IMG/VR virus record: IMGVR_UViG_2718217863_000002
Strand: one strand, 5' to 3'
Source: a virus
Taxonomy: Duplodnaviria > Heunggongvirae > Uroviricota > Caudoviricetes
Length of the DNA: 41,341 nt
A program made the position numbers and the translations under genes. Of this stretch, positions 2,668-4,393 are shown one piece after another (within the stretch, counting starts at the first letter, position 1; each line of letters opens with the position of its first letter). The notes under the pieces were generated by a model that had not been told where the DNA came from, did no database searches, and worked only from the letters and a program-made list of their open reading frames with translations.

Positions 2668-3933
2668 CTACTTAACCTGTAACAGGTCGGAGTATCTTGT
2701 AGTATAGCAAGGTGAAAGCATTTCCCGCTTCATCTGCCAGGCCGTTTGGATCCCCTGCCCTGCAAAATACAGCGTTCCCCTTCCGTCTTTCGCATTGAGA
2801 TGGTCGAGTACTTCCATCAGTTTCTCGCTATTCCGCCGTGGCACGTTATCATCAAACAAGTTTAGCTGGGCCACCCCCTGACTGTAGAAATCCCCCAGCA
2901 TCACTCCGGCTTTCTGGTAGCGATACCCGTCTCGCCAGATTGCATCGAGACATTCCGTCGCCGCTGTGATTATGTCCCGACTGTCCTGGGTCGGGGTCAA
3001 TAGTTTCACTGATGCACTATTGCCGTAGTACGGCTCATTCAGAGCAAATGGGCTGGTTTTGACGAATGCAGAGATAAAGCGGCAGTACTGATGCTCACCA
3101 CGGAGTTTCTCCGCGGCACGGGATGCGTATAAGCATATCGCCTGGCGCATCTCTTCGTAGGTGGAAATCCGCTGCCCAAAGCTGCGACTACAGACAATCT
3201 CCTGCTTTACCGGCGCGAACTCCTCAAGACCGAGACATGGCTCTCCGCGTAGCTCCCGCACGGTTCGCTCCAGTACCACATTAAAATGCTTCCGGATAAA
3301 ACGGATATCGGTATCCGCCAGTTGCAGTACAGTTTTAATCCCCATGGCCTCCAGTTTTTTACTGATGCGGCGCCCGACGCCCCAGACCTCATCCACCGGA
3401 AGCAAAGCCATCAACTTCCTCTGTCTTTCCAGGTTCGACAGATCCACCACGCCTCCGGTCTGCCGCTGCCACTGTTTCGCGGCGTGATTGGCCAGCTTCG
3501 CCAGGGTTTTAGTCTGGGCTATGCCGACGCCGACCGTTAGGTGTGTCCTGCGCAGAACCGTCTCGCGAATTTCCCTGCCAAAGTCGGTAAGGTCGCGACA
3601 ATTCCGAACTCCTGTCAGGTCGCAAAATGCCTCATCAATACTGTAAATTTCGCAGCGTGGAGAGAGTTCCTCCAGCGTTGTCATCACTCGGTTGGACATA
3701 TCGGCATAAAGCTCATAGTTGCTGCTAAACGCGATAATACCGTGCCGGCGAAACACGTCCTTTTGCTTGAAATAAGGCTCACCCATTTTGACGAAGGGCT
3801 TCGCTTCTGGCGAGCGGGCGATCACACAGCCGTCGTTGTTTGACAGAACGACCACCGGACGCCCTTTCAGGTCAGGACGAAATACGGTCTCGCACGATGC
3901 ATAAAATGAATTCACATCACAAAGCGCAAACAT
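2668..3933 (-). CDS. umuC: DNA polymerase V catalytic subunit UmuC (Y-family translesion polymerase)
   Basis: Translation from the internal ATG starts MFALCDVNSFYASCETVFRPDL and matches UmuC along its length; 421 aa; ATG at 3933-3931. Confidence 0.9.
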   Translation of the reverse strand: MFALCDVNSFYASCETVFRPDLKGRPVVVLSNNDGCVIARSPEAKPFVKMGEPYFKQKDVFRRHGIIAFSSNYELYADMSNRVMTTLEELSPRCEIYSIDEAFCDLTGVRNCRDLTDFGREIRETVLRRTHLTVGVGIAQTKTLAKLANHAAKQWQRQTGGVVDLSNLERQRKLMALLPVDEVWGVGRRISKKLEAMGIKTVLQLADTDIRFIRKHFNVVLERTVRELRGEPCLGLEEFAPVKQEIVCSRSFGQRISTYEEMRQAICLYASRAAEKLRGEHQYCRFISAFVKTSPFALNEPYYGNSASVKLLTPTQDSRDIITAATECLDAIWRDGYRYQKAGVMLGDFYSQGVAQLNLFDDNVPRRNSEKLMEVLDHLNAKDGRGTLYFAGQGIQTAWQMKREMLSPCYTTRYSDLLQVK

Positions 3934-3934
3934 C

Positions 3935-4354
3935 TTAGCCAGCTGATTTAATGATGTACGTAACCACCCCGAACACGTCGAGAGTGTCCTCACTACCGAC
4001 GACTATTGGCGAATATGCAGGGTTCATTGGGTTAAGCTGAACCCGCGGATGCAGTTGCAGCTTCTTAACGGTGAATTCCCCATCCACAGCAGCAATAACG
4101 ATATCGCCATGAACTGCTGTTCTTGAGCTATCCACGACCAGAAGATCACCTTCCCCTATGCCTGCGTCTTTCATGCTGTCGCCGGCGGCTTTGACAAAAT
4201 ACGTCGCACTTGGGTGGTTAACGAGCAACTCGTTCAGATCAATACGTTGCTCAACATAATCCTGCGCTGGACTAGGAAAGCCGCACTGCACAAGGTCACT
4301 GTACAACGGGAGCAGCATGATCTGGCGTAACTCAACGGGCGTGTAGAACTGCAT
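3935..4354 (-). CDS. umuD: UmuD (LexA-like S24 peptidase, Pol V accessory subunit)
   Basis: Contains [14 protein letters not shown] and VKKLQL motifs; ATG at 4354 gives 139 aa; track ORF starts 5 codons earlier at a GTG (4369) that sits too close to the LexA box; stop lies 1 nt before the umuC start. Confidence 0.9.
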
Positions 4355-4373
4355 AATAAACTCGCTCACAAAA

Positions 4374-4393
4374 TACTGTTTTTATATACAGTA
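4374..4393. promoter_or_regulatory. LexA operator (SOS box) of umuDC
   Basis: TACTGTTTTTATATACAGTA, a perfect CTGT-N8-ACAG palindrome about 20 nt upstream of the umuD ATG. Confidence 0.75.

Follow-up and report, generated by a model that had tools for sequence, protein, structure and literature searches.

The stretch of DNA analysed here (41,341 nt, IMG/VR virus record IMGVR_UViG_2718217863_000002; hereafter the window) begins in host chromosome and continues into a Klebsiella-type prophage integrated at the icd site of Escherichia coli. Close to one end of this prophage lies an umuDC operon, whose two genes encode the subunits of DNA polymerase V (Pol V), and directly upstream of it is an operator for the SOS repressor LexA, which a predicted promoter overlaps:

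2668 to 3933, minus strand: umuC, catalytic subunit of Pol V, 421 aa (IMS, IMS_C, IMS_HHH and DUF4113 domains; NCBIfam PRK03609)
3935 to 4354, minus strand: umuD, autoproteolytic subunit of Pol V, 139 aa (Pfam Peptidase_S24; NCBIfam PRK10276)
4374 to 4393: LexA operator, TACTGTATATAAAAACAGTA in minus-strand reading, with its CTGT-N8-ACAG core at 4376-4391
4388 to 4416, minus strand: predicted umuDC promoter, TTGATT (4416-4411), a 17 nt spacer and TACTGT (4393-4388)

A previous reading of the window, made from its letters and open reading frames (ORFs) and hereafter called the sequence-only reading, had named these two genes umuD and umuC, and both names hold, as the ORFs are intact and score above the curated cut-offs of their families. 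UmuD reached 103 bits against Pfam PF00717 (Peptidase_S24; cut-off 23.3, E=1e-29) and 166.9 bits against NCBIfam PRK10276 (cut-off 110), and UmuC matched NCBIfam PRK03609 over residues 1-421 with 861.7 bits (cut-off 431), with every NCBIfam model for Pol IV falling below its own cut-off on this protein. The two proteins also matched PHROG 811 ('UmuD-like') and PHROG 1268, UmuD matched the solved structures of E. coli UmuD and UmuD' (220 bits to the UmuD of PDB 8GMT), and the RefSeq annotation of both genes was already correct. Like its chromosomal counterpart in E. coli, the phage operon consists of two adjacent genes, here with 1 nt between the umuD stop codon and the umuC ATG, and its 139-aa UmuD keeps the Cys24-Gly25 cleavage site (LVQC24-G25FPSP) together with GDS60M and TVK97K, so that the Ser60/Lys97 catalytic dyad is retained. 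The domains of UmuC are likewise shared, including D6 and the F10/Y11 steric gate (CDVNSFYASCE), the acidic pair D101/E102 (E. coli numbering; SIDEAF, YSIDEAFCDL) and the beta-clamp motif QLNLF (VAQLNLFDD). The comparison with the host's chromosomal copy that had been proposed gave protein identities of 74% for UmuD and 86% for UmuC, and an identical operator.

Selection on the operon was gauged against the window alleles by the ratio of nonsynonymous to synonymous substitution rates (dN/dS), whose median was 0.051 for umuC (71 distinct viral alleles) and 0.017 for umuD (66 distinct viral alleles); 76 of 80 viral copies were full-length and free of gaps. These values point to strong purifying selection on umuDC in the phage-borne lineage. 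The sequence-only reading had allowed for a non-functional copy; with both frames at full length, the catalytic and processing residues kept and dN/dS at 0.02-0.05, the phage copy looks functional. Its guanine plus cytosine (GC) content of 50-57% stands out from the 37-42% of its flanks, a GC-rich operon in AT-rich surroundings being the usual look of accessory phage cargo, or a 'moron'.

A perfect LexA operator about 20 nt upstream of the likely umuD ATG at 4354 had also been claimed, and it is there, the ATG lying 19 nt downstream of the operator 20-mer. Exact CTGT-N8-ACAG sites number 2 in the 41 kb window, against 0.42 expected, and the operator agrees at 20/20 positions with that of the chromosomal umuDC in the same E. 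coli lineage. Of 152 related loci, 138 have a LexA-type box at a distance of 13-22 nt before umuD (57/152 with the identical 20-mer); the box is therefore no chance match. The upstream region as a whole is homologous to that of E. coli chromosomal umuDC, with a common ATTGATAG...TATTGAT(C/T)-17-TACTGT arrangement, and from this alignment we infer the promoter TTGATT-17-TACTGT, whose -10 element would lie inside the LexA box. By its box the operon ranks as a member of the LexA (SOS) regulon, in which LexA binding and induction by DNA damage would be expected. The chromosomal umuDC box has a heterology index of 2.77, which places it among the tightest LexA sites of E. coli, without detectable basal expression (PMC2994835).

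Six IMG/VR proviruses (L094, L107, L113, L119, L145, L157) have a GC-rich structured sequence (...GGGATCTGTGCGGGGGGTATCCGGTAACGGGTATCCCTACCGCGACAT) in place of the LexA box at its usual position, judged within 70 nt of the umuD ATG; probably an inserted element ends there. In plasmid CP076548 the annotation places a group II intron (ltrA) next to umuDC.

The icd-site prophage and its relatives

The limits of the prophage, and the borders of the slot in which umuDC lies, are set by three features:

1532 to 1697, minus strand: displaced original 3' end of the host icd (icdC-type pseudogene), marking the distal prophage end
4919 to 5488, minus strand: Pin/Hin-type serine DNA invertase bordering the cargo slot (Pfam Resolvase and HTH_7)
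40199 to 41341, plus strand: lambda-type tyrosine integrase at the icd-proximal prophage end (Pfam Arm-DNA-bind_1 and Phage_integrase)

Positions 1-1700 of the window are host DNA (ycgX, iraM, icdC) and match the iraM-icdC flank of the e14 element in K-12 at 99.7% identity (a figure also given for 1400-1700); this host flank stops at ~1700. The segment at 1532-1697, annotated in RefSeq as a partial isocitrate dehydrogenase, matches, at 84% over 166 nt, the icd 3' end brought in by the phage, with which icd is now complete, and in the matching genome the intact icd follows directly past the integrase, just beyond the right end of the window. Bracketed by icd and icd' and by the end of the host DNA, the prophage therefore spans ~1698 to just past 41341. 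The operon lies ~1 kb inside the distal end, between that end and the region of the Pin-type invertase and tail fibres. The icd/icd' duplication and the comparison with the K-12 flank thus bear out the placement of umuDC in the sequence-only reading, inside the boundary set by the icd fragment and between the attachment site (att) and the tail-fibre region, and the region left of the invertase, for which a chromosomal origin had been considered, proves to be phage cargo.

The prophage encodes an integrase, excisionase, CI, Cro, a YmfL-type protein, replication, Dam/RusA and lysis functions, and, on the structural side, a terminase, portal, HK97-type head, tail, TipJ and tail fibres, in addition to the invertase; the ISKpn26 insertion of strain 5CRE51 is absent from the window copy. 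It shares with e14 of K-12 the icd site with a duplicated 3' end, the succession of tail-fibre inversion system, pin, cargo and icdC, and a YmfL-type early region. In contrast to e14, a defective remnant of 15 kb ordered pinE - mcrA - icdC in which mcrA fills the equivalent slot, the prophage of the window looks complete and has umuDC in that place; the CI of the window and YmfK of e14 are distantly related (35% identity over 66 aa). In Klebsiella phage KPP5665-2 the integrase directly adjoins the invertase, and the slot is thus empty. Bounded by att, variably present, distinct in GC and apparently equipped with a LexA-controlled promoter of its own, umuDC has the properties of prophage accessory cargo. 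Our reading of the locus, to which we give a probability of roughly 0.85, is that a functional umuDC operon is carried as a moron in the slot between the tail-fibre invertase and att of a complete Klebsiella-type lambdoid siphovirus of ~39.7 kb, integrated at the e14/icd site of E. coli.

The segment is carried by 11 of 5426 complete E. coli genomes and is absent from the other 5415. The host's own umuDC is intact at its canonical hlyE-umuDC-dsbB locus, at a distance of 22 kb and with the same orientation. The cell thus has a second Pol V operon, in a prophage cargo slot, beside a chromosomal one to which it is 71.8% identical in nucleotides, with synonymous sites saturated. The statement that the prophage supplies its host with an SOS-inducible translesion polymerase is supported, with two qualifications: the intact phage operon is not the host's only Pol V, and its inducibility and activity are predicted from the sequence.

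E. coli strain 3426 has the same umuD allele beside the invertase of a prophage at another site, sapB. CP095244 (p21080237_4 of Klebsiella pneumoniae), a 41.7 kb circular 'plasmid' with phage genes only, is probably an excised or replicating phage and has the order int - attP (icd 3' end) - BRO - remnant of an SOS-response-associated peptidase (SRAP) gene - umuC - umuD - two LexA boxes - dinI - tail fibre - TipJ; the two boxes stand in tandem between the divergent umuDC and dinI (L252 31251-31294), and together read as a compact SOS module borne by a phage. Close relatives of UmuC are encoded by at least 597 IMG/VR stretches; the best 80 of these (93-100% identical) were examined for context, and most have TipJ and/or Pin upstream of umuD-umuC, near the contig end. 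The layout in these proviruses, which are probably mostly from Klebsiella, is TipJ - tail fibre - Pin - umuD - umuC.

In GTDB species representatives, UmuC relatives at 80-91% identity occur mostly in non-phage contexts, the closest of them being a Klebsiella sp. UmuC (91%) among metabolic genes. The pattern is consistent with the phage group having long ago captured a chromosomal umuDC, presumably together with its native promoter and operator. Capture by aberrant excision from the nearby E. coli umuDC was considered and rejected, since the two copies share 71.8% of their nucleotides and the closest non-phage relative is from the Klebsiella clade; the geometry is also wrong, as the source of cargo on the tail-fibre side of att would need to be the integrase-proximal flank and not the iraM/umuDC side. 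Recent gene conversion between host and phage copies was likewise rejected, there being no long identical tracts other than the operator.

Two further loci are of note. Near yodB in ~20 E. coli genomes (E. coli MIN9, L004 4747-5624) lies a decayed remnant made up of an invertase fragment, a 79-aa UmuD ('DNA polymerase V') fragment and a stretch with ~94% identity to window 4370-4996, LexA box included; this remnant appears to mark an independent, older acquisition. The chromosomal umuC of K. pneumoniae ATCC 13883 (L016 10001-11266; one draft genome) is interrupted by an in-frame stop where Trp184 would stand (VSEV*GIG). If this stop is real and common, intact Pol V in some strains of Klebsiella could come mainly from phage copies.

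Proposed SOS control, the LexA box within cI and rival explanations

The operon would be expected to respond to DNA damage as follows. In the lysogen, host LexA would sit on 4374-4393, overlapping the -10 element, and keep the operon almost silent. Upon damage, activated RecA (RecA*) would bring about self-cleavage of LexA, upon which the operon would be transcribed, and self-cleavage of UmuD at Cys24-Gly25 to give UmuD'; UmuD'2C with RecA-ATP would then constitute the active translesion polymerase, working with the beta clamp of the host. Cleavage of the S24-type CI should follow from RecA* as well, so that Pol V expression and prophage induction would share one input. The outcome would be a second, diverged Pol V able to raise damage tolerance and SOS mutagenesis in the host and to copy damaged phage DNA. 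On the phage side, two features matter here:

37578 to 38273, plus strand: CI-type repressor with a helix-turn-helix (HTH) and an S24 autopeptidase domain (Pfam Peptidase_S24, E=1e-20; PHROG 4 and PHROG 6201)
37787 to 37806: second LexA-type operator, TACTGTACATATAAACAGTA, within the cI ORF (codons 70-77, in the linker between the HTH and S24 domains)

The S24 autopeptidase domain ascribed to CI by the sequence-only reading is borne out by the Pfam match, and CI also has a candidate Ala-Gly cleavage site at 100-103 together with Ser145 and Lys182; the same damage signal should therefore induce the prophage. The operator within cI is the most unusual of the side observations. Across 57 distinct cI alleles (86-100% protein identity) its TACTGT and ACAG arms are invariant; in the same alleles 79% of third codon positions vary, as do the 8-bp spacer and the residues it encodes, and the codon before the box specifies seven different amino acids with its last base always T. 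Two cI genes of ~70% identity have a box at the same offset: that of the Stx2a-converting phage Stx2a_WGPS2, whose box has the sequence of the umuDC box, and that of Salmonella phage 118970_sal3, in which an Asn-to-His change preserves the 'AC' of the ACAG arm. At least 120 IMG/VR contigs have the cI-internal box; their CI proteins, 51 of them distinct, are 65-100% identical. The box is absent from the relative CP095244, whose CI differs. A search of 72 alleles for a conserved sigma-70-like promoter (at least 8/12) at the box found none on either strand; TTTACC-17-TACTGT on the cI sense strand is present throughout, although coding constraint confounds this. Nor was a conserved internal start codon seen from which the C-terminal domain of CI could be made by itself. 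The box could serve a LexA-limited internal or antisense promoter, or act as a roadblock, and the LexA site at lambda pO/oop offers a parallel for such a promoter (PMC5869508). A corresponding box in the e14 repressor gene ymfK was looked for and rejected, the only CTGT-N8-ACAG of e14 lying in ymfI, and no direct description of intragenic LexA boxes in repressor genes was found in the searchable literature.

These observations raise the question of whom the operon serves. It may act mainly for the phage, through lesion bypass on the phage's own genome (a built-in Weigle reactivation) or through modulation of RecA* that tunes CI cleavage and induction. Weigle reactivation of lambda depends on host umuDC. 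The RecA* input is common to the operon and to prophage induction, the relative CP095244 pairs umuDC with a LexA-controlled dinI, a RecA* modulator, behind two tandem LexA boxes, SRAP genes or their remnants lie beside umuDC in several relatives, strong purifying selection persists over many phage lineages, and a second conserved operator stands inside cI. Against this, the tightness of the operator (heterology index 2.77) would make umuDC a late SOS gene, so that lysis may precede much build-up of UmuD', the host's own Pol V is already at the phage's disposal in this strain, and benefit to the host remains compatible with all of the above. We regard a main role for the phage as possible but doubtful; it does not exclude carriage of umuDC as functional cargo, with which it is compatible. 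It is also conceivable, although we think it unlikely, that the prophage is wired to LexA at both conserved operators in such a way that LexA itself gates lysis, with Pol V mainly a phage function for copying a damaged phage genome. If so, the cI-internal operator, common to Stx2a-converting and Salmonella phages, would represent a previously undescribed SOS layer in lambdoid induction.

That the operon is instead an inactive passenger, decaying or silenced, is very improbable. In its favour, a decayed remnant of the module, with a LexA box and a 79-aa UmuD fragment, persists near yodB in ~20 E. coli genomes, some proviruses have an insertion between the box position and umuD, and the in-frame stop in the umuC of ATCC 13883 shows that umuC can be lost; the ORFs of the window, however, are intact with all key residues, their dN/dS is 0.02-0.05, 76/80 of the viral copies have their full length, and both operator and promoter region show conservation. 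Hardly credible is the remaining possibility, that umuDC is ordinary host chromosome beside the prophage and was miscounted as cargo: its UmuC is 86% identical to that of E. coli and 91% to the one among metabolic genes in Klebsiella sp., and many IMG/VR proviruses end right after umuC, perhaps through imprecise boundary calls, but the operon lies between the halves of the icd duplication, beyond the end of the K-12-identical flank at ~1700, in a segment missing from >99% of E. coli genomes, the host copy is at its canonical locus, and the module recurs beside an invertase at sapB (strain 3426) and in a circular phage replicon.

Several points nevertheless weigh against umuDC being functional, LexA-controlled cargo of a mobile phage. 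The terminator scan of the window found no intrinsic terminator immediately behind umuC, which makes the 3' limit of the transcription unit uncertain, and no convincing minus-strand one after the invertase gene; read-through from upstream could yield some LexA-independent expression of umuDC. As the host already has a Pol V, a phenotypic effect of the second copy is not guaranteed. Finally, no virion-derived genome with the operon was found, and the closest 'phage' record, MK416022, is presumably a computational prophage prediction. Spread in virions has indirect support from the circular replicon CP095244 and from the occurrence of the module in both E. coli and Klebsiella.

Neighbouring open reading frames

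Besides the operon, the cargo slot holds three smaller features:

1833 to 1987, plus strand: decayed fragment of an SRAP (YedK) gene (RefSeq pseudogene; tblastn)
2038 to 2481, minus strand: orf147, an orphan ORF downstream of umuC, between the SRAP fragment and umuC, followed by a terminator (2033-2009)
4569 to 4694, plus strand: hydrophobic ORF of 41 codons, MSQTDLLIVVFTLGILAFGYSIWFISNRILCSIFHRLTKNI, divergent from umuD

In tblastn the SRAP fragment matched its counterpart in Klebsiella phage ST846-OXA48phi9.2 at 83-94% identity, interrupted by a stop codon and a frameshift, and the remnant is common to the circular phage replicon CP095244 (L007/L252). In ST846-OXA48phi9.2 a longer SRAP ORF, running to the end of the record, lies beside umuC. 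The remnant in CP095244 and this longer ORF suggest that SRAP and umuDC formed an ancestral cargo block.

Because the sole predicted minus-strand terminator in this region follows orf147, the latter may be co-transcribed with umuDC. The idea that it is a recognisable partner was nonetheless rejected: Pfam, NCBIfam and PHROG gave no match, its homologues form only 3 clusters, from Raoultella (R. ornithinolytica) and E. coli, and of 160 related umuDC loci just 1 has it, so that it belongs to no conserved module. The 41-codon ORF, which is followed by a strong plus-strand terminator at 4900-4927, is intact with few substitutions in 17 related loci and falls in the stretch (~94% DNA identity) common to the decayed module remnant of ~20 E. 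coli genomes; no family match was found in NCBIfam or PHROG, and from its hydrophobic sequence its product could be a small membrane protein or a toxin.

Beside the Pin-type invertase lies an invertible tail-fibre segment of 5.6 kb (5532-11106), whose inverted repeats are 394 bp long and 85.8% identical, with the palindromic TTCGCTCAAACCCTCGTTTGGGCGAA starting both ends. The whole segment was found inverted, at 100% identity, in IMG/VR provirus L088. Two complete fibre cassettes, 5580-7739 with 7648-8463 and 8719-11058, are therefore swapped behind TipJ.

Related mobile polymerases and biological significance

Mobile homologues of Pol V under LexA control, such as mucAB of pKM101, impCAB, samAB and rumAB of SXT/R391, add mutagenic capacity to their hosts. 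Those orthologues travel on conjugative carriers (plasmids and integrative and conjugative elements), whereas the carrier here is a temperate phage, and the proteins of the window, at 74% and 86% identity to chromosomal UmuDC, are presumably much closer to the chromosomal proteins than MucAB or RumAB. Temperate phages are also known to feed genes into the host SOS and Pol V pathway, as do P1 with HumD, an analogue of UmuD', and Gifsy with its dinI homologues; these supply an accessory subunit or a modulator only, unlike the prophage of the window, which has a full two-subunit polymerase with a full-length UmuD that would be cleavable (the NCBIfam HumD model scored 110.6 bits on the phage UmuD, below its cut-off of 120). 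LexA-regulated dinI genes of prophages have been described in Salmonella (PMC8072944), and prophages of Bacillus subtilis carry Y-family polymerases (PMC6511836). A precedent is found in Acinetobacter baumannii, in which prophages CP1, CP5 and CP9 carry umuDC or umuD-rumB 'morons' near the integrase/att end that are inducible by DNA damage, with an associated SRAP gene in CP9 (PMC3224125; PMC3978071). Both the carriage of an error-prone polymerase operon as prophage cargo and the SRAP association recur here, but the A. baumannii morons belong to other umuDC lineages and other phage types and involve the repressor UmuDAb rather than LexA, whereas the operator in the window is a canonical LexA box of enterobacteria, with the same sequence as in the host.

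Literature searches turned up no direct description of the Klebsiella/E. coli prophage umuDC module. The observation of a phage-carried umuDC holds, yet it adds a further case to a known type of phage cargo, and the analysis of the window mainly confirms gene calls of a known type that were correct and already annotated. The listed carriers are human isolates, and several of their names (5CRE51, PRO_A-..._ESBL, the MRSN series) suggest, by name alone, extended-spectrum beta-lactamase (ESBL) production or carbapenem resistance. These isolates have acquired a second, predicted SOS-inducible error-prone polymerase on a Klebsiella-type phage. The Rum polymerase, a mobile Pol V homologue, accelerates the evolution of drug resistance (PMC11602152), and since mobile Pol V homologues have this effect, a phage route between Klebsiella and E. 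coli would be relevant to stress-induced mutagenesis in pathogens. How common the layout is, together with the strong purifying selection on the operon, suggests that in this phage group Pol V is a function maintained by selection.

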